The translations under genes and the position numbers were made by a program. DNA of 59,614 bases from Gemmatimonadota bacterium (GTDB lineage: Bacteria > Gemmatimonadota > Gemmatimonadetes > Palauibacterales > Palauibacteraceae), in assembly GCA_039714435.1 (NCBI GenBank), contig JBDLJJ010000003.1, forward strand, positions 1-59,614, given 5' to 3'. Of this stretch, positions 722 to 30,383 are shown piece after piece (the stretch's first letter is position 1; each line of letters starts with the position of its first letter). The notes under the pieces are model-generated. The model made no database searches. It saw only the letters and a program-made list of their open reading frames with translations, and was not told where the DNA came from.

Positions 722-2140
722 TCAGGAGTCCGCATCTTCAGCGTACTTCTTCAGTTTGCGATACAGCGTTCGCCGGTCCATGCCCAGTAACTGAGCGGCC
801 TTTGTCTGGTTTCCACTCGTAGATTCGAGTACAGACAGAATCTGTTCGCGCTCCAGCCGCTCCACGCTCCAGCGTCCGCCCCGGCCCAGCTCCAGTAACC
901 GATGTTCTGGAATCGACGACGAGCCAATGGGAGGGTCGAAGCGGATGGATTCGGATCCGGCATAGATAATCATGGCCCGCTCGATAAAGCTCTGCAGTTC
1001 CCGAACGTTACCTGGCCACTCGTAATCCATCATTCGCTGGTATGTCTCAGGCGGGATCTCAGGCGGCTTAACCTGGTTCTCGTCCGCAAACTGATTTCGA
1101 AAATAGTTCGCCAGCAGCGGGATATCCTCCTTGCGGTCCCGGAGGGGAGGGACGGCGATAGGAAAGACGTTGAGCCTGAAGAAGAGGTCCTCTCGAAATC
1201 GGCCCTCCGCCACCTCGCGCGCCAGATCTACGTTCGTGGCCCCGATGAGCCTGAAGTCTACGGGGAGCCGGCTGGAGCCGCCCACTCTCTGAACGTGGCG
1301 GTCTTCCAGCACCCGCAGCAACTTGGCCTGGATAGCCGGCGAAATCGTCGAGAGCTCGTCCAAAAACAAGGTGCCGCCACTGGCTTCCTCGAACAGGCCA
1401 CGCCGGCTGGCAATCGCTCCCGTAAAGCTCCCCTTTACGTGGCCGAAAAGTTCCGACTCGAGGAGAGTCTCGGGCAGCGCGGAACAGTTGACCGGAACGA
1501 AAGATTTTTTCGCCCGGGGCGAAAGGTCGTGAACGGCCCGCGCCACGAGCTCCTTCCCTGTTCCGGTCTCTCCGGTTACGAGCACCGTGGCTCGGGTCGG
1601 AGCGACTCTCTCGATCAAGTCGAACACCCGGCCCAGGGCGCGCGATTTTCCTATCATGCGAGAGCGCGGCCCTCTCGGCACCTCACGCCGCAGCTGCGCC
1701 AACTCGCGCCGCAACTCTGTTCGCTCGCGGGCGCGCTGAATGATCAGCAGAAGCTCTTCAGGCTCGAGCGGCTTCTCCCGGTAGTCGAATGCGCCGAGCC
1801 GCATGGCCTGGACAGCGGTTTCGATATCGGCGAAGGCCGTCATCATGATGATCTCGGCGTCCGTCTGGGTGTTCGGCGCCGCCATCATGACGCTAATCCC
1901 GTCGATGCCGGGAAGGCTATAGTCGAGAAGCACCACATCGAATATGTCGCGCTGCATGATCTGGAGAGCCTCCTCGCCTGTGCGGGCGCTCACGACTTCG
2001 TATCCCGCGTCGGTCAGAAGTTCCTCCAGAAGAGTGCGCATGGGAGCCGCGTCGTCCACAACCAGGATTCGGCCATGCACCCGGGAGACGTCCTGCGCCT
2101 CGGTTTCTGGAACGTGCGCCAGGGCGCCCTGCCGGTTCAC
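722..2140 (-). CDS. NtrC/AtoC-family sigma54-dependent response regulator (REC-AAA+-Fis HTH)
   Basis: REC domain (VVDD, LLD, T, K), Walker A GETGTGKE, ESELFGH..GSFTGA, LFLDE, WPGNVREL, C-terminal AAQLLGMDRRTLYRKL. Confidence 0.96.
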   Translation of the reverse strand: MNRQGALAHVPETEAQDVSRVHGRILVVDDAAPMRTLLEELLTDAGYEVVSARTGEEALQIMQRDIFDVVLLDYSLPGIDGISVMMAAPNTQTDAEIIMMTAFADIETAVQAMRLGAFDYREKPLEPEELLLIIQRARERTELRRELAQLRREVPRGPRSRMIGKSRALGRVFDLIERVAPTRATVLVTGETGTGKELVARAVHDLSPRAKKSFVPVNCSALPETLLESELFGHVKGSFTGAIASRRGLFEEASGGTLFLDELSTISPAIQAKLLRVLEDRHVQRVGGSSRLPVDFRLIGATNVDLAREVAEGRFREDLFFRLNVFPIAVPPLRDRKEDIPLLANYFRNQFADENQVKPPEIPPETYQRMMDYEWPGNVRELQSFIERAMIIYAGSESIRFDPPIGSSSIPEHRLLELGRGGRWSVERLEREQILSVLESTSGNQTKAAQLLGMDRRTLYRKLKKYAEDADS

Positions 2141-3213
2141 ATCTCCTCCTCTCTGTCCGCCACCGGAATTCGGACTCGCACTTCGGCTCCTGCTCCCGGT
2201 GCGCTGGCCAGGTTGACCTCTCCTCCCGCGAGCGCAGCTCGCTCCCGCATCCCGAACCAGCCCAGGCCGCGCCCCGCGTCGGCGCTGCGGGCGTGGAGGG
2301 AGAATCCGCGCCCATTGTCGCTTACGGTTGCCATTACCGCCTCGTGATCCTGGGAGAAAACGATCTCCATCCTGGTCGCCCTGGAGTGCCGAATGACGTT
2401 GGTCACAGCCTCCTGAATGATCCGGTAGAGCGCTAGCTTGGGCGCGGGAGCGAGAGCTTGTGGGTCCATCGGCCCGGCAATGATCTCAGTCTCCAGGTCA
2501 AGATCGGCGGTAGCACGCCGTACGTGCGCCCGAACCGCGGCGATAACTCCGGACGCATCCAGTTCGGGGGGACGAAGACCGTGCACGATCCGGCGCACCG
2601 CGGCGTCGGCTTCCTGGAGCTCCTCGTACAGGCCTTTGAGCAACTCCTCCCTACGCTCGGGCCCTTCCGCTTTCCGAATCATCTGAACGCGCATGATGAG
2701 GGCCGATAAGCGCTGGGCCGTGTCATCGTGCAGGTCGCGCGCGACTCTCTCGCGTTCCTCTTCCATACCCCGGAGAACGCCCGAGCCGAACCGCTGCAGT
2801 CTCTTCTTGGGCGTCAGATCGTGAACGACAGCCAGGACGTGTACGTCAAGCTCGTTTGCGATCGGCGCCAGACCGACGAAGACGGGGAAATCAGAGCCGT
2901 CAAGGCGCCGAGCCTCGAATTCCTTCCGAATGGGCTGCCGTCCGGGCTCGTTCACGAAGCTCAGCAGCGCTTTCTGGTGGGATTCACGCAAATATTCGGG
3001 TACGATCGCCTCCAGAGACACACCCATCATTCTCCGGCGACCGTACCCGAACATCTCCTCCGCCCGCTGGTTGGCGAGCAGAACGCTTCCAGACGAGTCG
3101 AACACGAGGCAACCGTCCGGACAAATCTCAAACAGAACTCGTCCGTCCAGCTCCGATAGATACGCCTCTTCCTCCCGCTGTTCCCGTCCCTCGGCCCGCA
3201 GCGCGGAATCCAT
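2137..3213 (-). CDS. Cytoplasmic PAS-domain sensor histidine kinase, HisKA_3 (NarX/UhpB-type)
   Basis: PAS/PAC region (NQRAEEMFGY, PEYLRESH, RRLDGSDFPV), H-box ERERVARDLHD, QEAVTNVIRHS, DNGRGF, GMRERA. No transmembrane helix seen. Overlaps the regulator by 4 nt. Confidence 0.93.
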   Translation of the reverse strand: MDSALRAEGREQREEEAYLSELDGRVLFEICPDGCLVFDSSGSVLLANQRAEEMFGYGRRRMMGVSLEAIVPEYLRESHQKALLSFVNEPGRQPIRKEFEARRLDGSDFPVFVGLAPIANELDVHVLAVVHDLTPKKRLQRFGSGVLRGMEEERERVARDLHDDTAQRLSALIMRVQMIRKAEGPERREELLKGLYEELQEADAAVRRIVHGLRPPELDASGVIAAVRAHVRRATADLDLETEIIAGPMDPQALAPAPKLALYRIIQEAVTNVIRHSRATRMEIVFSQDHEAVMATVSDNGRGFSLHARSADAGRGLGWFGMRERAALAGGEVNLASAPGAGAEVRVRIPVADREEEM

Positions 3214-3220
3214 GGTGTGG

Positions 3221-4138
3221 CTACGCTACCGGTTGTTCATCAGTCACCGCGGCCAGCGGCTCGTCCGGACGCAACTCCTTGCCATCGCCCTTCAGGACCA
3301 ACACGGGGCACGGAGCCTGACGGAGTACTCTTTCCGCCACACTGCCGAGCAGCGTGCGCTCGTACCCGGTGTATCCATGACTGGGCATTACGATCAGATC
3401 GTAGCCGCCTTTCTCGGCCGCCTCGATTACTTCCCCTGAGGCTCTGCCAATGACGGCCCCTACTCCGGGAGTCCGATCCAACTCCATGGTCTCGGCCAGG
3501 CGAGCCAGCCGATCCTCGGCCTCTTGCCGGAGCACCTCTGGCCGGGAGGCGTTCTGCAGATATGTCTCCGGGTAAAGGGGCAACTCTACGGCGTGGAGAA
3601 GATCAACGTTGGCCCCGAAGGCTGAGGCAAGCTCTCGGGCTACGCCCACCGCGAGTGAAGTGTGGGTCGAGAAATCAACCGGGAGCAGGATCTTGTCGAC
3701 AGCCAGTGGAGCCGCCTTCTCGTCCAGCCGAACCACAAGAACCGGGCACTTGGCCAGTCGAACTACCTCTTCCGTGACACTGCCCAGCAGCAGCCGGCGA
3801 ACACCTCGGCGCCCATGCGAGCCCATCACGATCATGTCCACATCATGCTCTTCGGCGTACCCCAGAATGGCCTGCCCCGCGCTCACTCCCTGCACGGTTT
3901 CATGGTAAACCTCACCCCAGGCGATCTCCGGTACTGCCTCTTCCAGCGCCAGCCTGGCCGCCTTCTCACCAGGGTACGGGTCCCTGCGCTCCAGATAGTG
4001 TTCCGAATGCAGCACCTGGACGTGGAGCAGATGGAGGTCCGCTCCATGCAATTGTGCGAACCGGGTCGCCACGGGCAGCGCGTGCTGCGCGCAGGCGGAC
4101 AGATCCGTCGGGCAAAGTATTCTCTGAATGTTTAGCAT
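3221..4138 (-). CDS. Universal stress protein, tandem Usp domains
   Basis: Two ILxPxDxS starts and two GSHGR..LLGSV(T/A)ExVxR..CPVLV-type motifs. Confidence 0.95.
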   Translation of the reverse strand: MLNIQRILCPTDLSACAQHALPVATRFAQLHGADLHLLHVQVLHSEHYLERRDPYPGEKAARLALEEAVPEIAWGEVYHETVQGVSAGQAILGYAEEHDVDMIVMGSHGRRGVRRLLLGSVTEEVVRLAKCPVLVVRLDEKAAPLAVDKILLPVDFSTHTSLAVGVARELASAFGANVDLLHAVELPLYPETYLQNASRPEVLRQEAEDRLARLAETMELDRTPGVGAVIGRASGEVIEAAEKGGYDLIVMPSHGYTGYERTLLGSVAERVLRQAPCPVLVLKGDGKELRPDEPLAAVTDEQPVA

Positions 4139-4170
4139 CGGACTCCTCCTTCTCTCAAAGTCCTACCCCG

Positions 4171-4206
4171 CACTACCGGCCCTTCCATTACCGGCCCTTC
4201 CACTAC
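4171..4206. repeat. 15-bp tandem repeat (about 2.4 copies) in the usp 5' UTR
   Basis: CACTACCGGCCCTTC CATTACCGGCCCTTC CACTAC. Confidence 0.85.
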
Positions 4207-4212
4207 TATGAC

Positions 4213-4228
4213 AGCATGCCTTGTACCT
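4213..4228 (-). promoter_or_regulatory. Putative sigma54 (-24/-12) promoter of usp-kinase-regulator operon
   Basis: Minus strand AGGTACAAGGCATGCT (GG-N10-GC). Confidence 0.55.
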
Positions 4229-4311
4229 GCCGAGCGATTTCGCGTCAGGCTCGCAATCGACTGAGTTGCTGGCACTTGGGGCTTCCGTGCAGTTAGCCCC
4301 CGGTGCGCTAC

Positions 4312-4326
4312 GGGACTATTTGTCCC
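4312..4326. promoter_or_regulatory. Palindromic operator/UAS GGGAC-N5-GTCCC
   Basis: GGGACTATTTGTCCC lies between divergent promoters. A degenerate second site, GTGGCACATTGACCC, follows immediately. Confidence 0.65.
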
Positions 4327-4454
4327 AGCAATGTGGCACATTGACCCAGTGCTGCGCTATCCCCAGATCGTCGGCCGGCCGACCAAGCCACCAAAAGCCC
4401 CGCGTGGCGCCAGCATATGAGCGCGCTTCGGGAGTTGTGCGCGTAGCGATGAAC

Positions 4455-4470
4455 GGGCACGTTCCTCGCT
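4455..4470 (+). promoter_or_regulatory. Putative sigma54 promoter of the CBS-export-ATPase operon
   Basis: GGGCACGTTCCTCGCT (GG-N10-GC, close to TGGCACG-N4-TTGCW). Confidence 0.65.
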
Positions 4471-4535
4471 CTGTGGTATCACCGACAACGGGTGTCCCCT
4501 GGATCCCTTTTTCGCTGAAGAAGCGAGGTCTGATC

Positions 4536-5090
4536 ATGGTTACTCTTCATCACGTTATGACGACCGATGTTCAAACCGTGTCGGCGCAAGCCAGCGTTCG
4601 GGAGTTGGCCGAGTTGCTCAGTGCCAATCGAATAAGCGGTTGTCCGGTTGTGGAAGGAGACCGGGTCGTGGGCGTGGTGTCGACGAGCGATCTTCTTGAA
4701 TTCGATGCCATCACACCTGGAGTTCCAGTTCTGCGTTCAGAAGACTCCCACTCCGACATATGGGCCCCCGCAGAGACGTGGCGGGAAGGAGACGAGTCAC
4801 CGTCCGCTTTCTTTATCAACTGGTGGGAGGATGCGGGAGCCGATGTAACGGTTCGCGCTACCAGTTCGGATTCGCCGGAGTGGGATCGCCTCGAAGAGCA
4901 CACGGTGGACGAGATCATGACCAGAGCCGTCTGTGCGCTGTCTGCCGATATGGGCCTCGATATGGCGGCCAGGTACATGCTCAGGGCGGGTATCCACCGG
5001 GTACTCGTTATGGATCACGAGCGTCTGCTGGGTATCGTAACCACGACGGATCTCATCAAGGCGATAGCCCAGTACGGAATCGCGGGCTAG
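4536..5090 (+). CDS. CBS domain-containing protein
   Basis: ATG at 4536 after GAGG. CBS pair (VMTTDV..ISGCPVV..GVVSTSDL; IMTRAV..IHRVLV..GIVTTTDLI) with an acidic insertion. Confidence 0.9.
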   Translation: MVTLHHVMTTDVQTVSAQASVRELAELLSANRISGCPVVEGDRVVGVVSTSDLLEFDAITPGVPVLRSEDSHSDIWAPAETWREGDESPSAFFINWWEDAGADVTVRATSSDSPEWDRLEEHTVDEIMTRAVCALSADMGLDMAARYMLRAGIHRVLVMDHERLLGIVTTTDLIKAIAQYGIAG

Positions 5091-5101
5091 CGGGCACCTC
5101 C

Positions 5102-5887
5102 GTGTGGAGCCCGTTCTGCGCCGCGATTCGATCTGTGGTCTGCGCCGGTGCCTTCACGGTTGGCGCGATAGCGGCTTTGGCCAGCCCGCTTTCCGGGCAA
5201 GAGCCACGGGAAATCGTTGACCGGGTCGACCAGCTACTACGGGGCGAATCCAGCCGGGGTGTGGTCGAGATGGAAGTGGTCAGCTCACACTGGGAACGAA
5301 CCCGGACGATGAGAATCTGGTCGCTCGGCACCGAATACGCGCTTATTCGCATTGTCTCCCCAAAAAAGGATGCCGGTACGGCCACGCTCAAGGCAGGGGA
5401 TGAGATATGGAACTACCTGCCCCGAGTCGACCGGGCGATCAAGATTCCGACGTCTCTCATGAGTTCGTCGTGGATGGGATCGCATTTCACCAACGATGAC
5501 CTCGTCAAAGAGCACCGGCTCATAGACGACTACGCGATCGAAACCTCGTATGAAGGGCTGCGGGGCACGATCGCGGTGTGGGAACTCGATCTCACTCCGT
5601 TGCCGGAAGCACCCGTCATTTGGGAGCGGATCCTGTATCAGGTGCGGAAGCGAGACTTCATGCCCGTTTGGGCGAAATTCTACGACGAACGAAACGCGCT
5701 CGTCCGAACGCTCCACTGGTCGGAGTACCGAACTATGGGTGGTCGGCTGGTACCAACGATTCTCACGGTGATTCCAGCTGACCAACCGGAGGAGCGAACG
5801 GAGATCCGATACCTCGAGCTTGAATTCGATGTCGGACTGGAGGAATCGTTTTTCTCTCTTCGCTTCCTGCGTGAGCAGGCCGACTGA
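5102..5887 (+). CDS. LolA-like outer-membrane lipoprotein-sorting protein
   Basis: Signal-peptide-like N-terminus; motifs WNYLPRVDR.IKIP.S.M..SWMGSHFTNDDLV. GTG start at 5102 is inferred. Confidence 0.85.
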   Translation: MWSPFCAAIRSVVCAGAFTVGAIAALASPLSGQEPREIVDRVDQLLRGESSRGVVEMEVVSSHWERTRTMRIWSLGTEYALIRIVSPKKDAGTATLKAGDEIWNYLPRVDRAIKIPTSLMSSSWMGSHFTNDDLVKEHRLIDDYAIETSYEGLRGTIAVWELDLTPLPEAPVIWERILYQVRKRDFMPVWAKFYDERNALVRTLHWSEYRTMGGRLVPTILTVIPADQPEERTEIRYLELEFDVGLEESFFSLRFLREQAD

Positions 5888-5888
5888 T

Positions 5889-7148
5889 ATGCGAGCAACC
5901 CCATGGCGCCGGATCGGGTGGCGTAACCTGGGTCGGAACCGGCGGCGCACACTATTTACACTCGGCGGACTGGCCATCAGTTACACGGCGGTCGTGGTGA
6001 TGGCCGGACTGGGCCGAGGTATGGTGGCGGAGATGGTGGGGAACGGCACGGGCCTATTTAGCGGCCAGATCCAGATACACGCCGCCGAGTATCTGCCAGA
6101 ACGCAGCCTGTACAGCACGATCGGAGGGCGGAGTGGGCTGAACGTGGCGGCGACCCTGGCAGCGGTCGAGGCCGACCCCTCGGTGGATGCGGCAGCGCCC
6201 AGAGTGTACGCCGGTGGATTGGTGAGTTCCGGCGAGGCCACTGTCGCCGCAGGATTCGTCGGTGTCGATTTGGCGCTCGAACCGAAGGTCTCGACGCTCC
6301 TGGAATCGGGCCTCCGCGGGCGCCACCCCAGGTCCGGCAGAAACGAACTGTGGATCGGACAAGAAATGGCTCGACAGCTTCGTGTCGAGCCGGACGATGA
6401 GATCGTGCTCGTCGCCGCGGCTGCGGACGGATCCCTCGGAAACGACCTGTTTCAGGTGGCCGGCATCTTCAGCACGGGCATCGCCGATGTCGACCGCTCT
6501 CTCGCACTGGTTCCGATCGATGCCCTTCAGACGCTTGTGGCTCTCGAGCCGGACCGAATCCACGAGGTGGCTGTTCGGCTGGCCGATCCCTGGGAGGCTC
6601 CGCCGACTGCCGTCCGGCTGAGCGCTGCTCTTGGGTCAGGCGTACTCGACTCGGAAGTCCAACCGTGGACGGAGCTGTACCCCGAGATCGTGCAGTACGC
6701 TGAACTGTTCATTTCGGTCGAGTGGCTTCTGATCGCCATCGTTTTTGTGATTGCGGTATTCGGGGTCGCCAACACGATGCTCATGGCTACGTTTGAGCGT
6801 CGGCGGGAATTCGCGCTCTTGCGAGCGTTGGGCGCCACTCCCCGGACGGTACTGAGGCTCGTGTTCACCGAAGCAGTACTGCTCGGCGGTGTGAGTCTCA
6901 TTTGCGGCATGATGATCACGTTTCCGATCCTCGTGTGGTGGCAGCACTCTCCGCCCGACATGAGCTGGCTGTACGGCGGGTTCACTATGGCGGGAGGTCT
7001 GGTGAGGCCGACCCTGCGCGTCGAGTATCCGGGTGCCATAGTGTTCACGGCGGCCATCGCCCTGTTCGCTACAGCCCTGCTGGCAGCCACTTTTCCGGCG
7101 ATACGCTCCTCGCGAGTGGCGCCGGCAGAGACTTTGATGGGGCGATGA
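5889..7148 (+). CDS. ABC transporter permease (LolC/E, MacB-FtsX type)
   Basis: WRNLGRNRRRT N-terminus, periplasmic domain, NTMLMATFERRREFALLRALGA. Confidence 0.92.
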   Translation: MRATPWRRIGWRNLGRNRRRTLFTLGGLAISYTAVVVMAGLGRGMVAEMVGNGTGLFSGQIQIHAAEYLPERSLYSTIGGRSGLNVAATLAAVEADPSVDAAAPRVYAGGLVSSGEATVAAGFVGVDLALEPKVSTLLESGLRGRHPRSGRNELWIGQEMARQLRVEPDDEIVLVAAAADGSLGNDLFQVAGIFSTGIADVDRSLALVPIDALQTLVALEPDRIHEVAVRLADPWEAPPTAVRLSAALGSGVLDSEVQPWTELYPEIVQYAELFISVEWLLIAIVFVIAVFGVANTMLMATFERRREFALLRALGATPRTVLRLVFTEAVLLGGVSLICGMMITFPILVWWQHSPPDMSWLYGGFTMAGGLVRPTLRVEYPGAIVFTAAIALFATALLAATFPAIRSSRVAPAETLMGR

Positions 7149-8416
7149 GCGTGCACGTCTCGATCCTGACTCGGCTTGCGCTACGGAATCTGCGCCGCCA
7201 GACGCGCCGTAGCCTGCTCAGCGGTCTTGCGATGGTCGTCGGCCTGGCGCTGCTCGCGTTTTCCCGTGCCCTCGCCGCCGGCGCCCACGAAGACTGGATC
7301 GAAGCCGGGGTCCGCCTGTCGGGCGGTCATGTCACGGTCGAAGCACCCCATTTTCACGCCAGGAAGACTCTGTCGTACAGGATATCGGGTGACGAATTGC
7401 GAGCGGTAAACGATGCCCTCTCGACAGCGGGCCTGGCGGCCGATGTGCGCAGCTCTGCTGTGCGGCTGGAGATACAAGGCTTGGCCAGCACAGCAGTCTC
7501 GGCCGCACCCGTCACCGTCCTGGGCGTCCAGCCCGGGTCGGAACGCGATTTTTCACATCTGGCCGAGCGCCTCATCAATGGGCGTTATCTGGCTGAGAAT
7601 GACAGACTGCACGCGTATATAGGCGAAAAGCTTGCGGAGCGTCTCGGTCTGGGCATCGATTCCCGCCTCATCCTCACTGCCCAGGATGCGGAAGGCGAGA
7701 TTAGCGGCCAGTTGACGCGGGTCGCCGGTATTTTCCGGACGGGGATTCCGGAAGTGGATGAACGACGCGTCGAGATTCCGATCGGCATGGCTCGTGAGTG
7801 GCTGGGAGCTGACGGCTCAGCGACGTCCGTCGCGCTGCTTCTGGGCTCCAGTGATAGGGTCCAGGACGTCGTAGCCAGGTTGGACCACGAGCTGTCGTCC
7901 CGGGACGCTGATCTGGAAGTGCTGACCTGGCGTGAGGCCTCGCCTGGACTGGACGCGGCGATCCGAATGGACGACTTCGGAGATTGGGTGTTCCACTCGA
8001 TAACGCTTGTAGTAGTCGCGCTCGCCGTCGTCAACACGATACTCATGTCTGTGCTGTACAGGGTTCGCGAGTTTGGCGTTGTTCGCGCTTTGGGCCTCAC
8101 ACGGACGGAGACTGGCGTCCAGGTGCTTATTGAGGGGCTTCTGCTTTCAGTCGCCAGCGGGCTGTTGGGAATAGCGCTAGGCCTTGCGCTGACCTGGATC
8201 TTCTTCCGCGACGGGCTCGATTACTCGTTTCTGCTGGAAGAGGGATTTCGGGCGGCCGGGACCATCATGGAGCCCATCGTGCGACCCCGCTTTCACGTGA
8301 GCCAGCTTATCGGCAGCCTCGCATTCGTATTCGGGATCGGTATCCTGGCCTCGGCTTACCCGGCCTTCCGGGCGACCCGGATCGAGGTGGCTGATGCCAT
8401 GAAATTCGAGGCGTGA
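7145..8416 (+). CDS. ABC transporter permease (LolC/E, MacB-FtsX type)
   Basis: LALRNLRRQTRRS, NTILMSVLYRVREFGVVRALGL. ATGA overlap with the upstream permease. Confidence 0.92.
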   Translation: MSVHVSILTRLALRNLRRQTRRSLLSGLAMVVGLALLAFSRALAAGAHEDWIEAGVRLSGGHVTVEAPHFHARKTLSYRISGDELRAVNDALSTAGLAADVRSSAVRLEIQGLASTAVSAAPVTVLGVQPGSERDFSHLAERLINGRYLAENDRLHAYIGEKLAERLGLGIDSRLILTAQDAEGEISGQLTRVAGIFRTGIPEVDERRVEIPIGMAREWLGADGSATSVALLLGSSDRVQDVVARLDHELSSRDADLEVLTWREASPGLDAAIRMDDFGDWVFHSITLVVVALAVVNTILMSVLYRVREFGVVRALGLTRTETGVQVLIEGLLLSVASGLLGIALGLALTWIFFRDGLDYSFLLEEGFRAAGTIMEPIVRPRFHVSQLIGSLAFVFGIGILASAYPAFRATRIEVADAMKFEA

Positions 8417-9144: not shown

Positions 9145-9147
9145 GCC

Positions 9148-13097: not shown

Positions 13098-13114
13098 CGG
13101 GACAATCTGTCCCG
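13098..13114. promoter_or_regulatory. Palindromic operator/UAS (C)GGGAC-N5-GTCCC(G)
   Basis: CGGGACAATCTGTCCCG, about 100 bp upstream of a -24/-12 motif. Confidence 0.65.
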
Positions 13115-13214: not shown

Positions 13215-13230
13215 AGGCACGACCAGTGCT
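13215..13230 (+). promoter_or_regulatory. Putative sigma54 promoter
   Basis: AGGCACGACCAGTGCT (GG-N10-GC), 40 bp before the ATG and its GGAGG ribosome binding site. Confidence 0.7.
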
Positions 13231-18159: not shown

Positions 18160-18594
18160 ATGACAGTAAGCAGGATTTGCAATCGGTCCGCGGTCGTGAC
18201 CAACGGTGATGAAACGATTCTCGTTGCGGCCAAACGAATGGCCCGACTCTCGGTGGGTACGCTCATAGTCACCGATCGGGAAAGTGGTAATCATCCGATC
18301 GGCATCGTTACCGATCGAGATGTCGTAGTTCGGTGCGTGGCGGAGCAACTGGACCCCGCGATCACGCCGGTGTCGGCAGTCATGACCGTACCGGTGAAAA
18401 CAGTCCGTGAAGACACGCCCATCGAGACTGCCCTCACGTCCATGGCGTCAGCCGGTACCAGAAGGCTCGCCGTGACGAACGAGGACGACGAACTGGTGGG
18501 CGTCCTGGCCCTCGACGATGTGATCGAGCTTCTGGTCGAAGAGGCCGAGACCATCGGCCGGCTGCTCACCAAGCAGCCCCCGGTCTGGGCCTGA
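18160..18594 (+). CDS. CBS domain-containing protein (Hrp1/Rv2626c-like)
   Basis: AAKRM...VGTLIV...GIVTDRDVV...VMT...RRLAV...GVLALDD. Confidence 0.92.
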   Translation: MTVSRICNRSAVVTNGDETILVAAKRMARLSVGTLIVTDRESGNHPIGIVTDRDVVVRCVAEQLDPAITPVSAVMTVPVKTVREDTPIETALTSMASAGTRRLAVTNEDDELVGVLALDDVIELLVEEAETIGRLLTKQPPVWA

Positions 18595-24600: not shown

Positions 24601-27200
24601 TCCGGCGTCCACTCCAGAAGGTGCCGCCGCGTGATCCACAAACGTGCCAGGGTTCGAAGAATGGCGTCCAGCGCGATCCATGCCTCGTACGGAAGAAACA
24701 CCCCGGCCAGAACCCACCGGCCGAGGTTTGCGGCGAGCCCGGTCCGGCCGTGGGAGGTATGCTTGCGGCCGCCCTCGCTCCTGTCGTCGGAGCGGGCAAC
24801 GTGGATGAACCGGCGAGTCGCCGTGGCCGCCCCGAGAAGTGCAGGAAAGCCTAGAACGACCATAGCGCCTACGGCCCAGCGCCAGGGAGGGCCAAGACCA
24901 AGGAACCACCCGAAGAGAAGCATGGCCATCAGGGATGGAGCCAGCAAGCTGCGACGGAGGTTGTCCCAAATCTGCCACCTGGAGATCGGTCGCAGCTGAT
25001 TCCGAATGCGAGGCCCCGCGGCCGACGGCACCCGGGGCATGAGCCAGGGAAGAAGCTGCCAGTCGCCTCGTACCCAGCGATGCAGACGACGCATGTATGC
25101 CAGTGGCTGATCCGGGAAGTCCTCCAGCAGAATCACGTCGCCCAGAAAACCGCAACGTCCGTGGGCGCCCTCGAACAGGTCGTGACTGAGCAGGCGGTTG
25201 TCGGGCACGCGTCCGGCCAGGCTCGCCTCGAACGCCCGCACGTGGAAGATCCCCTTCCCCGCGTAGATGCCCTCCGCGAACACGTCCTGGTAAACATCCG
25301 AGATCGCGTGTGTGTAGAGGTCGAGGCCGGAAGGAACTCTCCCCAGCCACGCGAACAGAGTCGGCCGACCTGGATCCAGAATCGTCTCCAGCCGCGGCTG
25401 AAGAACCGTGTAGCCGGCCACTACGCGATCCTCTTCAGTCAGCACGGGCTCGTTGAGCGGGTGAGCCATGGCCCCGATCATTCGCTCCACGGAGCCCCGT
25501 GGAAGACCCGTATCGCGGTCGAGGGTGATCACGTATTTCGTGGCCTCCAGGCCGGTGCGGGATCCTGCCATCAGAACCAGGCCCCCATCATCCACTCCCA
25601 TGAGCAGGCGGCTCAGTTCTATCAGCTTGCCCCTCTTACGCTCCCATCCCATCCAGCGCCCCTCGTGCTGATTCCACTGACGCTCCCTATGGAAGAGGAG
25701 AAACGGAGGCTCGCCATCGGTCTGGTGGCGGCGGTTCAACAGAAGCACTCCCTGGCGTGCTCTTTCCAGGAGTTCGTCCTCTTCAGGCAGATGCTTGAAA
25801 TCCGCGTCCTGAAAATCGGTGAGGAGCGTGAAGCGCAGGCGGCGCAGGCCCGTGCTTTGATAGAGAACCTCCAGATGCTCCAGAAGCTGATCCAACTCGT
25901 GCGCGTCGCCGATGAGCACCGGCAGGGCGACCAGAGTGGTACAGTCTTCGGGCACTTCGTCGCGAATCCTCAGCTTCGGCAAGACTCGAGCTGGTACCGA
26001 GTGTGAGACGATCCAGTTGAGCAAGCTTCCGGCCACCGTCAGGCCGGGGACCACGCCGCTGGCCAGCACCATGATCCGTGCACTCAGCGGCACGCCAGGC
26101 ACGCCGACAAGGAGCCACAGAGCTGCCGCGATGAGAAGCGTTAGTGTGACCACGACGCCTGTGTACAACGGGAATGCATGGCGCCGAACCCATCTGCTCA
26201 CTCGCTTCCTGGTACGGGGTCGGCAGGCCACGTGGAGTTCGAGTTCAGTACGACCTTCGGCTATGAGATAGAAGCCGACGTGTCCGCTTCTGGACTCTGT
26301 CTTGGTATCCCTACGGCTGAGCAGGACTACCGCTCCCGCGACTCCCTCCTCGCTCCACCCGGAATCGACTGCGACCTCGGCCAACACCTGCCTGTAACGA
26401 TCACGAGTAGCAAAATCCATACGCTCATAGATGCTACTGGGATCTTCACGAAGTGTTTTCTCGACCAGGCTGGTCGCGTCGAAGAACTCTCGCCAGTTCA
26501 TTCCGCCAATAAGCCGCAGACTCCCGATACAATTGGCAAGGGTCATCCAGGATGGTTGGCTCCTGGGCGGCCAATCCGGGATAGCGGTCATCGTCTCGAT
26601 CTCTAGCGCCCGTTCGGCCCCGGAGACGAGAGTCTCCAGCAGGGCGAGCTGGAGAGCTGCCGGCAGTGTCCATAGCTCGACCATTCTGAGCGGAGCGATG
26701 CTCTGATAGGCGTTGACGAAACCGACCAGAGCATCGGCATCCAGCTGCTGAGAAAGGTACTGAAGGACGCCGGCGCCAACGGCTTGCACGCGAGCCTCGG
26801 AACCTCCACCCGCACTCTCTAACCGCGGGAGTTGGCGAGAAAGGTCTCGGGCTCCCGCATCCTGTACGTCCCGCAGGGCGGATTGGATCACGTGTTCGTT
26901 GTCGAGGAGCCACTCGGCCGCGCGTGGCGCGCGTACCTCCGCCTCGGAGGTTTCTCTGAATCGGCGATAGACGACTTCGAGGCGGGGACGAAGGCTTCGT
27001 AGCCTTAGTGCGAAGCTGGGGCGGCGGCCGCGCCCGGAAGTTGTCTTGTGACGCTGGGCGAGTTCGCGGGCTATGCGCTCAAGCGCACCTCCCTCTCGGA
27101 CCTCACCCACCGGCACCGTTGTGCATAAGCTGGACTGGCCCGTGCAACTCCGCACAAGAGGGCACCTCACTTGGCACCCGCGCGCGAACCTGGGAGGCAT
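18618..27200 (-). CDS. ndvB: Cyclic beta-1,2-glucan synthase (GT84 + glucoamylase-like + GH94 phosphorylase), Cgs/NdvB family
   Basis: About 2.8 kaa; WMGWERKRGKL, LLSHDLFEG, RLHRWVRGDWQL, RTSPTNIG, YDLLASEARL, YQSSGAFGFRDQLQD, GDWNDG, RENGGQYTH. The true start is likely the GTG near 27110, overlapping the usp end. Confidence 0.94.
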   Translation of the reverse strand: MPPRFARGCQVRCPLVRSCTGQSSLCTTVPVGEVREGGALERIARELAQRHKTTSGRGRRPSFALRLRSLRPRLEVVYRRFRETSEAEVRAPRAAEWLLDNEHVIQSALRDVQDAGARDLSRQLPRLESAGGGSEARVQAVGAGVLQYLSQQLDADALVGFVNAYQSIAPLRMVELWTLPAALQLALLETLVSGAERALEIETMTAIPDWPPRSQPSWMTLANCIGSLRLIGGMNWREFFDATSLVEKTLREDPSSIYERMDFATRDRYRQVLAEVAVDSGWSEEGVAGAVVLLSRRDTKTESRSGHVGFYLIAEGRTELELHVACRPRTRKRVSRWVRRHAFPLYTGVVVTLTLLIAAALWLLVGVPGVPLSARIMVLASGVVPGLTVAGSLLNWIVSHSVPARVLPKLRIRDEVPEDCTTLVALPVLIGDAHELDQLLEHLEVLYQSTGLRRLRFTLLTDFQDADFKHLPEEDELLERARQGVLLLNRRHQTDGEPPFLLFHRERQWNQHEGRWMGWERKRGKLIELSRLLMGVDDGGLVLMAGSRTGLEATKYVITLDRDTGLPRGSVERMIGAMAHPLNEPVLTEEDRVVAGYTVLQPRLETILDPGRPTLFAWLGRVPSGLDLYTHAISDVYQDVFAEGIYAGKGIFHVRAFEASLAGRVPDNRLLSHDLFEGAHGRCGFLGDVILLEDFPDQPLAYMRRLHRWVRGDWQLLPWLMPRVPSAAGPRIRNQLRPISRWQIWDNLRRSLLAPSLMAMLLFGWFLGLGPPWRWAVGAMVVLGFPALLGAATATRRFIHVARSDDRSEGGRKHTSHGRTGLAANLGRWVLAGVFLPYEAWIALDAILRTLARLWITRRHLLEWTPEAASRRALRAHGGLFGHWRRMIVAPLVGVGGAFWLWSVLGNLPGVSLAFFGAWTASPAVAFLLSRPIPSRRREIPAQAEWLLREIALRTWLFFDQFVTAEDHFLPPDNWQEDREPALARRTSPTNIGMLLTSLVAAYDMGYVGLLSLESRVRNVLDSVDQLESYRGHLLNWYSTEDLRPLEPRYVSSVDSGNYAAALVVLRRTLLDAARVPVIRPVDSRGVMDVAQTFSRFVESGPAAHTDAARRLHDLLIDLDGACQLAGSDALEFVSLHLELRERLLPAIDESAVSLAEHSSMNRAAIHELRDWLSQLHRQLDLWDAERSALDPWTASLAAPPSLFAGGASLRSYESARVERIWSDLRTVLLRSVSPLDVPSMASKAQEHATRLEDVVRAGAFDADSVQCIVTWCEGLRSELARSIAESKRLLDSLDELTDRCTVQIEEMDFGFLYDRSRRLLHIGYQVTAEELDPHYYDLLASEARLASYVGIAKGDLPSSHWLQLGRAFGLVGRSPVLLSWSATMFEYLLPAVFMRSPPTSLLAHSSRQAVREHMNFGRRHGIPWGASESAYGHRGDGDSYQYRAFGVPGLGLRRGLGERRVVAPYASFLALPYAPLKASRNVEGLVHLGAKGRWGMYESLDFGSQGESTSSPTVIRAYMAHHQGMILAALDNLLHDDVLIRRFHTDPRMAAVEYLLHEGLPWRVPVRPDWAAREGALPKGPSRVVALESWSPSPGGPMASLHTLSNGRYRVTLSDGGGGGSWWEDMAITRWQPDAVRECQGQWLYLLDLDSGALWSAGRAPTGSSEGDVSAEYWPHMAALNRRDHQISSHLRITIPPDADVEIRRLTITNESDKTRRLAAVSYAEIVLGSGDEDLRHPAYSKLFLEGEYRRNPGCVVYRRRPKSPEEPSAYLAQALVGDDGDGLSSTWELSREVFLGRSGSSARPEALARGKAELSGKRGAPLDPIVALSAEFRLPPYATTEFACLTAVGRNEEDVLARIEEYRSLTRCAWAFESARQMAEEELAALGLHPSEHQDFQRLLSALIQGGHGLRAPADVRSVSAAPQAELWRFGISGDLPLLVLRLGHPEELEMARTLLRAHAYWRQKGVAIDLVLEDLASSGYAQPARDALRAALAESGSIDWLASPGGIHIVTAEQVQPDDLAFIESAASVFLDATGGTLADQLTRLEETPAGLPAFVPVPSSPLAPEPTVPLDREEALEFDCGLGGFASGGEEYVIRLDPGQTTPAPWAHVLANPEFGCLVTEGGGGYTWATNSSENRLTAWRNDPVLDEVSEAVYLRDEETGQVWSATQRPAGPDVPREVRYGAGYATFRQNSHGLEQRMRIFCALEDSAKIVELTLTNQWRRPRRFTITYFAELVLGSSRANSSRHLLPEFDGSTQTLLVRNPYSLAWSERYAFLTSSEPAHGVTTDRKEFLGAEGDFAKPGSLFRIGLSGRIQPDGDVCAAYQVHIDLPAGASRSLHFVLGQAETRSAAIQLARRFSRPSMIRSTRNGIKRYWDRLLGSVTVSTPEPAMDIMLNRWLPYQVINSRLWGRTGYYQSSGAFGFRDQLQDVLSLLDLAPSHAREHILAAARHQFSQGDVLHWWHPETEVGVRTRCSDDLVWLPYATATYVQRTGDAAILDELAGFIEAEPLRDSEGDRYGRYVASSSPETLYEHCLRALRKADTHGSHGLPLIGSGDWNDGLDRVGAAGDGESVWLGWFLAATLREFATMCDLQGDSEQSAVFQDRAAELIDRIEETSWDGDWYRRAYYGDGTPLGSSSSREGKIDLISQAWAVLAGGAETERQNRAMESVAQLLFRPEKSLVLLLHPPFDRTSRDPGYIKAYPPGVRENGGQYTHAAVWAGWAFGLLGQSSRAVGVFRMLNPVLRVTSEAAAREYRVEPYVVPGDVYGAPPYVGRGGWTWYTGAAGWFYRFGVEQILGLQRQGQTLSVNPRIPDDWPGYEIRMHTPALTAEIRVFRSEGGQLEWTLDGRKQGAVATV

Positions 27201-28116
27201 CCTGGAATACTAATAGCGGTTTTCGACCGTATGTAATCAGGTTGGTAGCCACGGAGCCGTACTCCCACTCGGAGTCGCCCGAAGCTCCGTGGGCGCTTGC
27301 CACGATCAGGTCTACGTCCTCCTCTTCCGCCACCTTGTGAAGGATCTTCGGAACGTTATCGGTGACCACAAGCCGGGTGCGGACTCGGAGGCGCTCACCT
27401 TCCAGTTTTCGCTTCATGTCGTCCAGGTATCGGCGCGCCGCTCGCCGGTTGGCCCGGACTAGTCTTCTACGCGCTTCTGCCTCGTGCTCAGCGGGTGGCA
27501 AGCGTCGCGGCATGTCTGGGATCTCGACCGCAAAGACAATCAGGAGGTCTGCCTGGAGCTCCCGCGCGATGCTGCCGGCGAGGCATAGCGCCCAGTCCGC
27601 TAGAGGCGACCCGTCGACCGGAACCATGATCCGTCGGTATGGATCATCAAACTCCAGCGCTAAGCCGCTTGCTGCTCGGACGAGTAGTATCGACGTGTCA
27701 CCACCACTGACGACTTTTTGTGCCACGGCTCCGAGACGCAGCGCGCTCCCACCCTCACCCTTGTCGCTTACTACAATCAGATCGATACTCTCACGCCTCG
27801 CGAAGTCACGAATCTGTTCCGCGGGCCGGCCTTCCAGAACGACAACATCTACCGGCAGATTCCTGGCCTGAAGAGCGGCCGCTTTCTCCTCCAGGTAGCA
27901 GGCAGCCTCCGCGCGACGAAGCCGAAGATCTACGTTGATAGGATCCGGTGTTCCAGACTCGGAGTGGACCACATTCAAGAAAATCGTCTCTGCCTCGTGA
28001 GCCGACGCGATCGCGGCCACGTGAGGAAGCACGCACTCCGCCAGGGTGGATCCGTCTAGTGGAACCAGAATACGTTGAATCAAAGATCCTCCTCCTGGTT
28101 CTGACGATGAATTCAC
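27103..28116 (-). CDS. Universal stress protein, tandem Usp domains
   Basis: ILVPLDGS.LAE, IMVPVDGS, DLIV.SAHG...GSVA. Confidence 0.92.
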   Translation of the reverse strand: MNSSSEPGGGSLIQRILVPLDGSTLAECVLPHVAAIASAHEAETIFLNVVHSESGTPDPINVDLRLRRAEAACYLEEKAAALQARNLPVDVVVLEGRPAEQIRDFARRESIDLIVVSDKGEGGSALRLGAVAQKVVSGGDTSILLVRAASGLALEFDDPYRRIMVPVDGSPLADWALCLAGSIARELQADLLIVFAVEIPDMPRRLPPAEHEAEARRRLVRANRRAARRYLDDMKRKLEGERLRVRTRLVVTDNVPKILHKVAEEEDVDLIVASAHGASGDSEWEYGSVATNLITYGRKPLLVFQDASQVRARVPSEVPSCAELHGPVQLMHNGAGG

Positions 28117-28253: not shown

Positions 28254-28727
28254 CTACTTGGCTGCCTTGATCGCGATGCGGCGTCCCTTCGCCTCCGCCG
28301 TCTTGGGCATGTGAACGGTCAGGATACCGTTATCGAACTCGGCCTTGATCGCGTCCACCTTGACGGTGCTGGGCAGCGAGAACGTTCTCGAGAACTCGCC
28401 GAAGCGACGCTCCCAGATCCGCATGCGCCGATCTCCCTTGACCTCTTCCTTCTCGTACTCGTCCTTCTTGTTCCCGTGCAGAGTGAGGATGTTGCCTTCG
28501 ACTTCGATGTCGACATCCTCGTCCGTCATCCCCGGCAACTCCGCCGTGAGGAACAACTCATCATCCGTCTCCTCGACATCGACGATTGGCGCCCATGCCA
28601 GAGGAAGCGGGTCCGCGAAAGTGGGCTCGAACATGGATCGAATACGATCCTCCAGGTTGCCGAAGTCGCGCCATGGCGACACCGGAACGTTCCGGGAAGC
28701 CCATCGAGTTGGAACCAGGCTTACCAT
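28254..28727 (-). CDS. Hsp20/alpha-crystallin small heat shock protein
   Basis: ATG at 28727 after GGAGG; AELPGM...ERRFGEFSRTFSLP...AEFDNGILTV.MPK. Confidence 0.95.
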   Translation of the reverse strand: MVSLVPTRWASRNVPVSPWRDFGNLEDRIRSMFEPTFADPLPLAWAPIVDVEETDDELFLTAELPGMTDEDVDIEVEGNILTLHGNKKDEYEKEEVKGDRRMRIWERRFGEFSRTFSLPSTVKVDAIKAEFDNGILTVHMPKTAEAKGRRIAIKAAK

Positions 28728-28803
28728 GATATCCTCCAGTCTGAGGGGTGTGATGTGGACCTTGGGTGGTCCATTCAGCGGATGGGCCGCCAATTTTTTC
28801 TTA

Positions 28804-28819
28804 TGCGGGTTTCGTACCT
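28804..28819 (-). promoter_or_regulatory. Putative sigma54 promoter of hsp20
   Basis: Minus strand AGGTACGAAACCCGCA (GG-N10-GC). Confidence 0.6.
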
Positions 28820-28902: not shown

Positions 28903-28917
28903 GAGTCAGGCTGTCCC
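28903..28917. promoter_or_regulatory. Degenerate GGGAC-N5-GTCCC UAS
   Basis: GAGTCAGGCTGTCCC (minus strand GGGACAGCCTGACTC), about 85 bp upstream of the hsp20 -24 element. Confidence 0.5.
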
Positions 28918-28962: not shown

Positions 28963-29991
28963 TCAGCGAAACAGGAAGAGCACCAATCCGTTGAGCAGAG
29001 CCATGAGAAGAAGCGTCATACTGGCCCAACCGATACGCCGGAACTCGTGCTTCTGTCCGTAGGTGAGTCCCACGATCACGATGCCGGACATGGTCATCGC
29101 CGTTATCGCCGTGAATACGTGCTGCCCGCTCGCCGCGGCGAGAAGAGAACCCGAGCTCCAGGCCAGGTCGTCGAAGGAAACGATCAACAGGTCGAAAAGA
29201 TTGGAGCCCAGCAAATTGCCGATCGCCATTTCGATCGCTCCGATTCGCACCGCTTGTACCGAAATGATCATTTCCGGCACTGAGGTGGCGAAGGCCATCA
29301 AGAAGGTTCCCACGAATGTCGCCTGCCATCCCATTCCCCTGGCTATGCCGTCTGCGGCTGCCGGGAGCACGATCCCGGCCACCACAACGGCCGCCGCGTT
29401 GCCCGCATAGCGGAAATAGATGTTCCGCGCAGTCAGCGCTGCCAGCTTGGGACTCTGCCGGGCTATTGCTTCATCTCTCTCAAGCACGTGCGCCGCACGC
29501 TCGCGCTTCTCATAGAAAAAGACGCTGCGCGCCGCTACCGCATAAACGATGAATCCGACCGGGGCGTAGATCCCTACACGGCCCAGGCCAAGACTTGGGA
29601 ACTGCTGTTCGAAGGCCAGGAGGCCGGCAATCAGTCCCAGAAGCACGATTCCGAACGCACCGGACAGCACGTGACCCTGATGCAGCCGCGTGTAGATGGA
29701 TTCGGGACGGTGCAGGAAGTCTAACACGACGATGATTAGCAGATTAAAAACGCAGCTACCGAGAGCGCCCCCTATGGCGAGATCGGGAGCATCGAGGAGG
29801 ACCACGGAGCTCAATCCGGATACCAGCTCCGGAAGCGACGTTACCCCGGCCACCAGCACGAATCCGATCCAGGCACCGCCCAGGCCTGTTCGGATGGCGA
29901 TCAAGTCTCCGTACCTGGAGAGCTGCGTCCCCGAATACAGAATCAGTAAGAGACAGGCGGCGAATGCCGACCAGGCCATTATCAGAGACAT
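28963..29991 (-). CDS. Sodium:calcium antiporter (CaCA/YrbG family)
   Basis: Alpha-repeats TSLPEL..GS.VFN and ATSVPE..GNLLGSNLF; about 10 TM helices. Confidence 0.9.
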   Translation of the reverse strand: MSLIMAWSAFAACLLLILYSGTQLSRYGDLIAIRTGLGGAWIGFVLVAGVTSLPELVSGLSSVVLLDAPDLAIGGALGSCVFNLLIIVVLDFLHRPESIYTRLHQGHVLSGAFGIVLLGLIAGLLAFEQQFPSLGLGRVGIYAPVGFIVYAVAARSVFFYEKRERAAHVLERDEAIARQSPKLAALTARNIYFRYAGNAAAVVVAGIVLPAAADGIARGMGWQATFVGTFLMAFATSVPEMIISVQAVRIGAIEMAIGNLLGSNLFDLLIVSFDDLAWSSGSLLAAASGQHVFTAITAMTMSGIVIVGLTYGQKHEFRRIGWASMTLLLMALLNGLVLFLFR

Positions 29992-30017
29992 GGTGTCGCG
30001 CTAGGGTTCCTCTCGTG

Positions 30018-30033
30018 TGGCACGTATCTAGCA
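30018..30033 (+). promoter_or_regulatory. Putative sigma54 promoter
   Basis: TGGCACGTATCTAGCA, a near-consensus -24/-12 motif, upstream of GGAGG and ATG 30063. Confidence 0.65.
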
Positions 30034-30062
30034 CTCAGACCTCTCAAACTATTGGAGGTCTA

Positions 30063-30383
30063 ATGCCGCTTCGAGTACTGCTTTGCACCTTTTTGGCCCT
30101 GTTTTCTGCGGCTGGCTGCGCAGTCGTACCCGAGTCACGGAGATTAACAGACGCCGAGCAGAAGAACTGGCAATCTGTCCATCTGCGGTGGTGGGAGACA
30201 ACCTGCCCGGGTGAGGACTGGTCGCCAATGTACTACAAGATGCGGGTCGTTGACGCCACTGACTTTCAGTATCAGGTCGTGGAAGACGAGGCCTACGGGG
30301 ATCTGCTTCTCGTCGGGAAGCGGCATCTGGGCGATTGGCCGGTGGTTACAGCGGGATTTGCGGAGGCCTGCAGCGAGGCGTAG
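30063..30383 (+). CDS. Hypothetical small lipoprotein
   Basis: GGAGG SD; signal MPLRVLLCTFLALFSAAG-C (lipobox-like). No family recognised. Confidence 0.6.
   Translation: MPLRVLLCTFLALFSAAGCAVVPESRRLTDAEQKNWQSVHLRWWETTCPGEDWSPMYYKMRVVDATDFQYQVVEDEAYGDLLLVGKRHLGDWPVVTAGFAEACSEA

Follow-up and report, generated by a model that had tools for sequence, protein, structure and literature searches.

The stretch of DNA analysed here (referred to as the window) is the entire 59.6-kb contig C3 of a metagenome-assembled genome (MAG) from an uncultured marine bacterium of the phylum Gemmatimonadota (2.87 Mb, 94% complete; designated G000), and the question it raises is which regulator and which signal govern the 30-kb block of stress genes at its start. 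The block encodes universal stress proteins (Usp), Hsp20, CBS-pair proteins, a P-type ATPase, a phosphoribosyltransferase (PRT), a dienelactone-hydrolase-type protein (DLH) and archease-RtcB, together with a PAS-domain sensor kinase and an NtrC-type activator. In an earlier sequence-only reading it had been described as a dormancy regulon like that of DosR in Mycobacterium tuberculosis, rebuilt under sigma-54 control; all gene families named there were confirmed by Pfam, and an SDH-family serine protease and a Na/Ca exchanger family protein, unlisted there, were added. Domain assignments are from Pfam scans of predicted genes, with NCBIfam models used additionally. The analysis favours a sigma-54 regulon under a two-component system; the probability of the whole mechanism, oxygen signal included, is put at about 0.68, and the sigma-54 and enhancer architecture taken by itself is considered highly probable.

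In the proposed mechanism, the cytoplasmic kinase would sense falling oxygen (or nitric oxide, carbon monoxide or redox state) through a FixL-like PAS domain and would phosphorylate the adjacent NtrC-type activator; oligomers of the activator would occupy the palindrome GGGACA-N3-TGTCCC, some 70-140 bp ahead of the -24/-12 promoters, and drive open-complex formation by sigma-54 RNA polymerase. Predicted targets are the tandem Usp-kinase-activator operon (giving positive feedback), the CBS-led envelope-transport/P-type ATPase cluster, and the DLH-protease, archease-RtcB-Usp, PRT-CBS and Hsp20-Usp genes. Both the phosphotransfer from kinase to activator and the binding of the activator to the palindrome are steps which we infer from sequence.

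Promoter elements, palindromes and their conservation

The expectation that rpoN would be present in the genome was borne out by a Sigma54_DBD match (7e-62) in a 490-aa open frame on contig C17, which includes the full DNA-binding domain; G000 encodes about a dozen sigma-54 activators. The activator of the block has a GAFTGA-type loop motif (GSFTGA in the translation), and its best solved relatives are Aquifex NtrC-family regulators. The genes of its transcription unit (unit 1; all features are listed in Table 1) are closely packed, with a 7-nt gap between the tandem Usp and kinase genes and an overlap (GTGA) of the kinase stop with the activator start. Since the activator sits in the operon behind the first regulated promoter, autoregulation is implied, as the earlier reading had proposed.

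The palindrome is 15 bp long, with arms GGGAC/GTCCC and a 5-nt spacer, and was generalised as GGGACANNNTGTCCC. The exact form GGGAC-N5-GTCCC occurs twice in the window (at 4312 and 13099), while the generalised form with up to two mismatches gave five matches (4312, 13099, 17326, 28903 and 29985), all of them in or at non-coding stretches of the block; no match was found in 30384-59614 at the same threshold. The -24/-12 motifs were scored with a GGCACG-N4-YYGCW scheme (maximum 7; strong, 6 or more), which gave 571 strong motifs genome-wide on both strands of 2.87 Mb. Five strong motifs (4456, 13216, 17227 (-), 28818 (-) and 30019) lie 45-119 nt upstream of units in the block, as against an expected number, indicative only, of approximately 0.15 in 10 x 150 nt of upstream sequence; just 33 motifs in the genome are as good as that of unit 2.

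In at least five units (tandem-Usp/kinase/activator, the CBS-led transporter cluster, DLH-protease, archease-RtcB-Usp and Hsp20) the palindrome was found 73-137 bp upstream of the -24/-12 element. Pairs of a palindrome (up to two mismatches) and a strong motif 50-220 nt downstream of it number nine in the genome, and four of these are in the block, which is 1% of the genome. An enhancer role for the palindrome-like site GAGACATGGTGTCGC at unit 7 is doubtful because it is only ~27 nt from the -24 element. The other paired sites in G000 adjoin genes for a MacB-type permease, HlyD, a peroxiredoxin, a REC-HD protein, a nucleoside hydrolase and ThiI; they were not counted as members because none adjoins a stress-kit gene.

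Related genomes are given G-numbers below, and loci fetched from them L-numbers. An orthologue of the activator was found in 25 of 301 sampled genomes of the phylum, all 25 in one class; those in the same family and order are 53-71% identical. Synteny of the stress families with an NtrC-type activator, a check proposed in the sequence-only reading, was found across the family and order, where 16 loci were compared. A tandem Usp gene stands beside the activator in 11 of the 16, and a kinase gene is adjacent in four (G022, G003, G016 and G010). Synteny of the ABC, FtsX and 395-aa protein genes extends to G022 and G003, of which only G022 gave a LolA match as well. The order Usp-RtcB-archease is kept in G022 and G016; G003 retains Usp-RtcB, running to the contig end, and G013 retains RtcB-archease without Usp. 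Orthologues of the first CBS protein (53-55% identical) are encoded divergently from the tandem Usp in L097, L098 and L099. At class level, Usp, Hsp20/CBS or RtcB matches adjoin the activator in 6 of 16 loci.

The promoter layout was also found to be conserved. Seven family-level loci have an activator gene with its own upstream region, and in six of them this region contains the palindrome (up to one mismatch); a GG-N10-GC element lies 110-165 nt beyond the palindrome in six of the same seven (by eye). These elements vary by genus, e.g. TGGCACGGTCTGCGCG, CGGCACGGAACGAGCA and TGGCATGCTTCCGGCA (by eye). Upstream of the tandem Usp gene, a GGTAC...TGCT element follows the palindrome at a distance of 85-100 nt in L097, L098 and L099 (genomes G022, G003 and G016; by eye), and the archease promoter of G022 has CGGCCGGATCACCGCA at the same place as in the window, behind two similar imperfect palindromes (by eye). 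In G295, the gene for an Hsp20 orthologue (62% identical) is preceded by the palindrome GGGACAGGGTGTCTC and then TGGCACGCCTTACGCA.

Loci around activator orthologues contained 12 palindromes with up to one mismatch in one set of 311 kb and 7 in another of 282 kb, where the G000 rate (8 per 2.87 Mb) would give approximately 0.9 and 0.8. Perfect palindromes numbered at least 11 across five genomes with an activator orthologue, while none was found in five genomes without one, four of which carry an orthologue of a NarL-type regulator discussed below; as related genomes are not independent samples, this tracking of palindrome with activator is support and not proof. Two congeners searched (88% and 90% complete) were without the activator orthologue, tandem Usp and RtcB together, and because all three are lacking alike, the module seems to have been gained or lost as a whole. 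Among 80 loci of activator homologues from other phyla (41-46% identical), none had Usp, CBS, Hsp20, RtcB, PRT or DLH genes nearby and 15 had only ABC or kinase matches; two homologues from Myxococcales MAGs (42-46% identical) had no neighbours in common with the block. With the 15-bp enhancer and its promoters conserved across a class of uncultured marine bacteria, the predicted regulon should be traceable by sequence in metagenomes.

The sensor kinase, its signal and published counterparts

No membrane segment was found in the kinase, by Pfam or by eye. Its PAS domain matches the heme-PAS domains of FixL and DosP/YddU in the PDB (E 1e-7 to 1e-5); apart from an uncharacterised top match, all 14 PAS matches at E <=1.1e-5 are to these sensors, and two weaker matches (E 0.003-0.005) are to proteins other than the heme-PAS oxygen sensors FixL and DosP. 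His79 of the kinase, invariant in all seven aligned kinases, aligns with a FixL histidine in the PAS F-alpha helix which we take to be the heme ligand, and the domain probably binds heme. PDB matches of the kinase core are to DesK and to the ATP-binding domains of DevS and DosT. The FixL-like PAS domain and the gene content point to a hypoxia/dormancy role for the block, which would serve survival during growth arrest at low oxygen.

In relatives, palindromes adjoin genes for acetate kinase, phosphoenolpyruvate synthase, pyruvate:ferredoxin oxidoreductase and an Fe-S/molybdopterin oxidoreductase, and also acyl-CoA synthetase and V-ATPase subunit genes. Perfect or near-perfect copies lie upstream of the pyruvate:ferredoxin oxidoreductase gene, the Fe-S/molybdopterin oxidoreductase pair and the acetate kinase gene. 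The regulon predicted for those relatives is larger, dispersed and richer in anaerobic-type energy metabolism, and such neighbours fit a response to oxygen limitation.

The same regulatory layout could instead answer to a signal other than oxygen, in a general growth-arrest response or one to energy depletion, RNA damage or envelope stress; the likeness to DosR would then be that of a generic stress toolkit. Elsewhere in bacteria, Usp, Hsp20, CBS and RtcB genes respond to a range of stresses; the ligands of PAS domains are diverse, and the similarity to FixL is modest (E 1e-7). The adjacent kinase also varies among relatives: the one beside the orthologous activator in G013 (L101, 3544-5106, minus strand) is of PAS-PAS-HisKA and not HisKA_3 type, the sensor partner having been exchanged within the family. 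A signal other than oxygen is nevertheless judged unlikely, in view of the invariant His79, the agreement of the 14 best characterised PAS matches, the anaerobic-type enzymes beside palindromes in relatives and the induction by low oxygen of all three experimentally studied analogues (PMC11841059, PMC3721108, PMC12071387).

The closest regulatory counterpart is the NmpRSTU system of Myxococcus xanthus, in which a heme-dependent sensor acts on the NtrC-like NmpR, which in turn acts on sigma-54 promoters; this wiring was shown experimentally, on fewer genes than the block holds, with NmpR binding GCGCA-N5-TGCGC upstream of the promoters (PMC11841059). Under hypoxia its targets are its own CBS-led operon, a Usp gene and a P-type ATPase gene with cbb3 oxidase, hemN and hemerythrin genes, and its authors liken their Usp to the tuberculosis dormancy regulon (PMC11841059). 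Shared with the block are the NtrC-like activator, sigma-54 promoters, the CBS, Usp and P-type ATPase genes and an inverted repeat in which both arms and the spacer are 5 nt long, although the arms differ in sequence (GGGAC-N5-GTCCC in the block). The autoregulated operon of NmpR is led by the CBS gene. In the block, autoregulation would run through the operon opened by the tandem Usp gene, and the CBS gene is a divergent neighbour on the same palindrome. In place of the phosphorelay of the protoglobin kinase NmpU and the hybrid kinase NmpS, the block has a single FixL-like PAS-HisKA_3 kinase, with no globin or hybrid kinase among its genes by Pfam. The NmpR targets centre on oxygen use (cbb3 oxidase, HemN, hemerythrin), while the block holds Hsp20, archease-RtcB, PRT, DLH and three Usp genes.

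In gene content, the lxa locus of Burkholderia cenocepacia is a second counterpart, being a single block of ~50 kb with six Usp genes and genes for alpha-crystallin, a cation ATPase and acetate kinase (PMC3721108). It further encodes ABC transporters and a transport protein of the outer membrane, and the overlap between lxa and the DosR regulon has been noted in print (PMC3721108, PMC12071387). Like the block, lxa is a single, Usp-rich gene cluster of a Gram-negative bacterium. Control of lxa was proposed to be by FixLJ and a CRP/FNR-type regulator through TGAT-N6-ATCA (PMC3721108, PMC12071387), in contrast to sigma-54 here, and its polyhydroxyalkanoate, ribonucleotide-reductase and cytochrome genes are absent from the block.

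The claim that the gene families parallel those of the DosR regulon stood up against published lists, which include Usp proteins, alpha-crystallin, Rv2626c (CBS), Rv1997 (cation ATPase), Rv0571c (putative PRT) and Rv2630/Rv2631 (RtcB) (PMC5309233, PMC6917788). The block shares with that regulon the tandem Usp, alpha-crystallin, CBS, cation ATPase, PRT and RtcB genes, a kinase with the HisKA_3 transmitter of DevS and DosT, and a palindrome with the half-sites of the DosR box. It differs in that its regulator is an AAA+ sigma-54 activator with a Fis-type helix-turn-helix and not a NarL/GerE protein, its sensor domain is PAS and not GAF, and its palindrome has a spacer of 5 nt and not 4 nt; nitroreductase, DGAT, ferredoxin and nitrate transporter genes were not seen in it. 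Against solved M. tuberculosis proteins, the Usp and CBS proteins match at family level only (E 5e-10 and 8e-7) and these are not their best matches.

The likeness goes beyond generic families in the case of PRT and DLH. Two abundant fusion types, DLH+PRT (about 420-480 aa) and erythromycin-esterase+PRT (about 650 aa), contain a PRT part to which the window PRT aligns over >87% of its length with 48-57% identity; these are presumably the architectures of Rv0571c and Rv2030c. The window DLH shares 56-61% identity with the corresponding part of PRT-DLH fusions, and the two genes are the split form of such fusions. Their best database relatives are fusion proteins, several labelled as from an actinobacterial or Chloroflexi MAG, and horizontal gain is possible. 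PRT and DLH (split here, fused in many genomes) and archease-RtcB would thus be tied to one switch, which supports the view that these poorly understood members of the DosR regulon are a functional module and not bystanders.

Sigma-54 control of related genes is known from Escherichia coli, where rtcBA is a sigma-54 operon under RtcR, induced by RNA and translation damage, and the small heat-shock gene ibpB is likewise sigma-54-dependent. RtcR has a CARF-type sensor domain and controls a single operon, with no archease, no Usp/CBS set and no two-component input. Known Usp-rich low-oxygen regulons are under regulators of the NarL type (DosR), the FNR type (Anr, lxa) and, since 2025, the NtrC type (NmpR). 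Within this comparison, the block comes closest to the DosR gene set among those under known or predicted sigma-54 control; its content is like that of DosR or lxa and its logic like that of NmpR, but the kinase and enhancer are different ones.

Regulon membership and recognition of the palindrome

Several results weigh against a sigma-54 regulon of this extent. The count of five palindromes in the window is not above chance (mean of 3.5 in shuffled sequence, with five or more in 29 of 100 shuffles), and an a-priori scan for TGGCAC-N5-TTGCW (up to two mismatches) showed no enrichment (15 observed, 22.75 expected). The signal lies in motif position and pairing and not in raw counts; the motif scores were tuned partly on these very sites, so that the numbers of strong motifs and of pairs are indicative only. 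A crude coding filter left only three of the five block palindromes non-coding, as against 6 of 104 elsewhere in the genome (hypergeometric estimate, p about 0.004). Units 1 and 5 have promoters that depart from the consensus, in distant loci a scoring -24/-12 motif accompanied only ~9 of 20 oriented palindromes, and upstream scoring found no motifs belonging to the Na/Ca exchanger and glucan synthase genes themselves. In five related genomes having the activator, neither PRT nor DLH was found, so that their membership is without a footprint there; they look like additions in this genome, brought under the same control. Three further points concern NarL-type regulators: the arms of the palindrome are DosR-box half-sites, such a regulator is encoded beside the activator in four relatives, and HisKA_3 kinases usually partner regulators of this type.

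The earlier claim that the transcription units carry -24/-12 motifs and a shared palindrome is retained for the five strong and two weak elements, the layout of which is kept in relatives (unit 7 having no palindrome at enhancer distance), but not for the Na/Ca exchanger, the membership of which is not supported by motifs, nor for the glucan synthase, which is an uncertain member. The glucan synthase gene lies downstream of the Hsp20 and Usp genes on the same strand, with no minus-strand terminator-like site between Hsp20 and it, and unit 6 possibly includes all three. It had been proposed, together with a LolA/ABC/outer-membrane export set, as an addition to the DosR-type content; the transport set does lie behind the unit 2 promoter.

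With respect to recognition of the palindrome, the serious rival is a DevR-like NarL regulator, which would read it as a relative of the DosR box, alone or with the sigma-54 activator, and would be the true partner of the kinase. The statement that no NarL/DosR-type regulator is present is true of the window, as no GerE domain was found on this contig; three were found elsewhere in the genome, on C13, C64 and C16, and the C13 protein is a DevR-like NarL regulator (DevR being its fourth-best solved relative, 1.2e-35) accompanied by a kinase 37% identical to that of the window. This second FixL-like PAS-HisKA_3 kinase gene stands beside the regulator gene at about 24.2-25.9 kb of C13 (L002), with prepilin-type genes after the pair. 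At 10 kb from these two-component genes, C13 also encodes a paralogue of the tandem Usp (47% identical), which was rejected as a palindrome-bearing target, having no palindrome upstream. In the relatives, G005 and G016 have orthologues of the C13 regulator (62-66% identical) two genes downstream of the activator, and G328 and G252 have more distant NarL-type regulators (37-40%) next to a kinase match (33-35% identity to that of the window); in these four genomes a single kinase may serve two output regulators. The exact string of the DosR consensus, with the same half-sites, occurs in PMC2275270.

This assignment is considered distinctly unlikely, however. The spacer is of 5 nt, and DosR-spaced GGGAC-N4-GTCCC has four exact matches in the genome, none on this contig. 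The sites have enhancer geometry, 73-137 nt upstream of -24/-12 elements, and sigma-54 promoters require an AAA+ activator. No palindrome (up to two mismatches) was found near the C13 two-component genes, while G013 and G025 have the palindrome and the activator, with a best match to the C13 regulator of 40% in one case and none at E 1e-30 in the other. In addition, the four genomes that carry the NarL orthologue and lack the activator orthologue have no perfect palindrome, with the non-independence of genomes already mentioned. That the motifs and clustering arose by chance, among separately regulated neighbours, is highly improbable: raw counts are not above those of shuffled sequence and GG-N10-GC is common in a G+C-rich genome, but palindrome and -24/-12 element are kept at diverged sequence upstream of orthologues in several genera, four of nine paired sites fall within 1% of the genome and synteny extends across the family and order.

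The sigma-54 regulon under its two-component system is thus preferred, and a HisKA_3 kinase beside an NtrC-type regulator, with NarL neighbours in four relatives, would offer a natural case for the study of two-component partner exchange. It is conceivable, though unlikely, that the DosR-type set (tandem Usp, small heat-shock protein, CBS protein, P2 ATPase, split or fused PRT-DLH and archease-RtcB) is a portable, cross-phylum kit for low-oxygen survival into which each lineage plugs its own oxygen-responsive regulator. In this class, a DevS-type (HisKA_3) kinase with a heme-PAS input would have exchanged its DevR-like NarL partner for a sigma-54 activator, with a branched output where both regulators adjoin and the enhancer half-sites as a trace of the takeover.

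Genes of the block and margins of the contig

Coordinates of the genes, promoter elements and palindromes are given in Table 1. Of the three Usp genes, two are tandem. The transport-set genes, the starts of which are approximate, are tightly packed behind the first CBS gene on the same strand. The 395-aa protein was assigned no family in the Pfam scan; its nearest Atlas cluster having a family is DUF1302 (in 41% of members), its own cluster is mostly of Acidobacteriota and the next is of Gemmatimonadota. The P-type ATPase is nearest to type IIA Ca-ATPase models of NCBIfam, though below their cut-offs, and family scans gave no known family for the 106-aa protein of unit 7.

Table 1. Positions of genes, promoter elements and palindromes in the block, and of sites in related genomes (strand: +, - or none (.))
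Feature	Position	Strand	Remarks
NtrC-type sigma-54 activator	722-2140	-	REC + Sigma54_activat (PF00158, 5e-68) + HTH_8; last gene of unit 1
PAS-HisKA_3-HATPase sensor kinase, cytoplasmic	2137-3213	-	Pfam; unit 1
Tandem Usp	3221-4138	-	Pfam; PDB matches include tandem Usp entries 3cis, 2jax; opens unit 1
Unit 1 -24/-12-like element AGGTAC-N5-ATGCT	4213-4228	-	GGTAC type, weak by consensus
Palindrome GGGACTATTTGTCCC	4312-4326	.	upstream site common to divergent units 1 and 2
Unit 2 -24/-12 element GGGCACGTTCCTCGCT	4455-4470	+	score 7; 137 nt from palindrome centre
CBS-pair protein	4536-5090	+	Pfam; opens unit 2
LolA-like protein, two FtsX/MacB permeases, ABC ATPase, 395-aa protein	5091-10335	+	Pfam; unit 2
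P2-type cation ATPase	10308-13097	+	Pfam, NCBIfam; closes unit 2 cluster
Palindrome GGGACAATCTGTCCC, perfect	13099-13113	.	upstream of unit 3
Unit 3 -24/-12 element AGGCACGACCAGTGCT	13215-13230	+	110 nt from palindrome
Dienelactone-hydrolase-type protein (DLH)	13271-13948	+	Pfam; unit 3
SDH-family Clp-fold serine protease	13956-14774	+	Pfam, NCBIfam; unit 3
Single-domain Usp	14799-15233	-	Pfam; unit 4
RtcB RNA ligase	15248-16705	-	Pfam; unit 4
Archease	16702-17181	-	Pfam; unit 4
Unit 4 -24/-12 element AGGCACGGAATCCGCA	17213-17228	-	score 7
Two imperfect palindromes GGGACAAAACGGCAC, CGGTCAGAATGTCCC	17293-17340	.	between divergent units 4 and 5; sites 17293, 17326
Unit 5 -24/-12-like element CGGCCTGAATGTAGCT	17417-17432	+	weaker, score 5
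Phosphoribosyltransferase (PRT)	17464-18141	+	Pfam; unit 5
CBS-pair protein, second	18160-18594	+	Pfam; unit 5
GH94-type giant (cyclic) glucan synthase, 2860 aa	18618-27200	-	Pfam
Tandem Usp, second	27103-28116	-	Pfam; unit 6
Hsp20	28254-28793	-	Pfam; unit 6; probable start ATG 28727 (translation)
Unit 6 -24/-12 element AGGTACGAAACCCGCA	28804-28819	-	strong, upstream of Hsp20
Imperfect palindrome GAGTCAGGCTGTCCC	28903-28917	.	92 nt upstream of Hsp20 -24 element
Na/Ca exchanger family protein	28963-29991	-	Pfam
Palindrome-like GAGACATGGTGTCGC	29985-29999	+	~27 nt from unit 7 -24 element
Unit 7 -24/-12 element TGGCACGTATCTAGCA	30018-30033	+	best match of window
106-aa protein with lipoprotein-type signal peptide	30063-30383	+	sequence reading; unit 7
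Palindromes upstream of anaerobic-type energy genes in relatives	L135 (G022) 370-2334; L138 (G003) 1888-3945; L136 (G003) 2830-5014; L097 7264; L098 7632		
Loci with activator and NarL-type regulator in relatives	L088 (G005) 5-2931; L099 (G016) 556-3545; L131 (G328) 9925-12884; L129 (G252) 5554-10504		

The contig begins inside a 16S rRNA gene (window 1-339, minus strand; model positions 1-327), which is cut at the contig end, and a 15-nt sequence resembling AAAAAGCAAACTGC is repeated in tandem near 517-548, upstream of the rRNA gene. Beyond the block, a tRNA-His gene (31311-31385, minus strand) has an exact 24-nt copy of its 3' end 87 nt beyond the gene (31219-31242 and 31306-31329), resembling an integration scar; as an island border this repeat was rejected, since its only two copies in the window are 87 nt apart and the block is not bracketed by them. 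A further sigma-54-like motif, ATGGCACAGAAGTGGCATAA, was found outside the block at 53858-53877 (plus strand), apparently in non-coding sequence, and may be a promoter for another of the roughly 12 activators of the genome.

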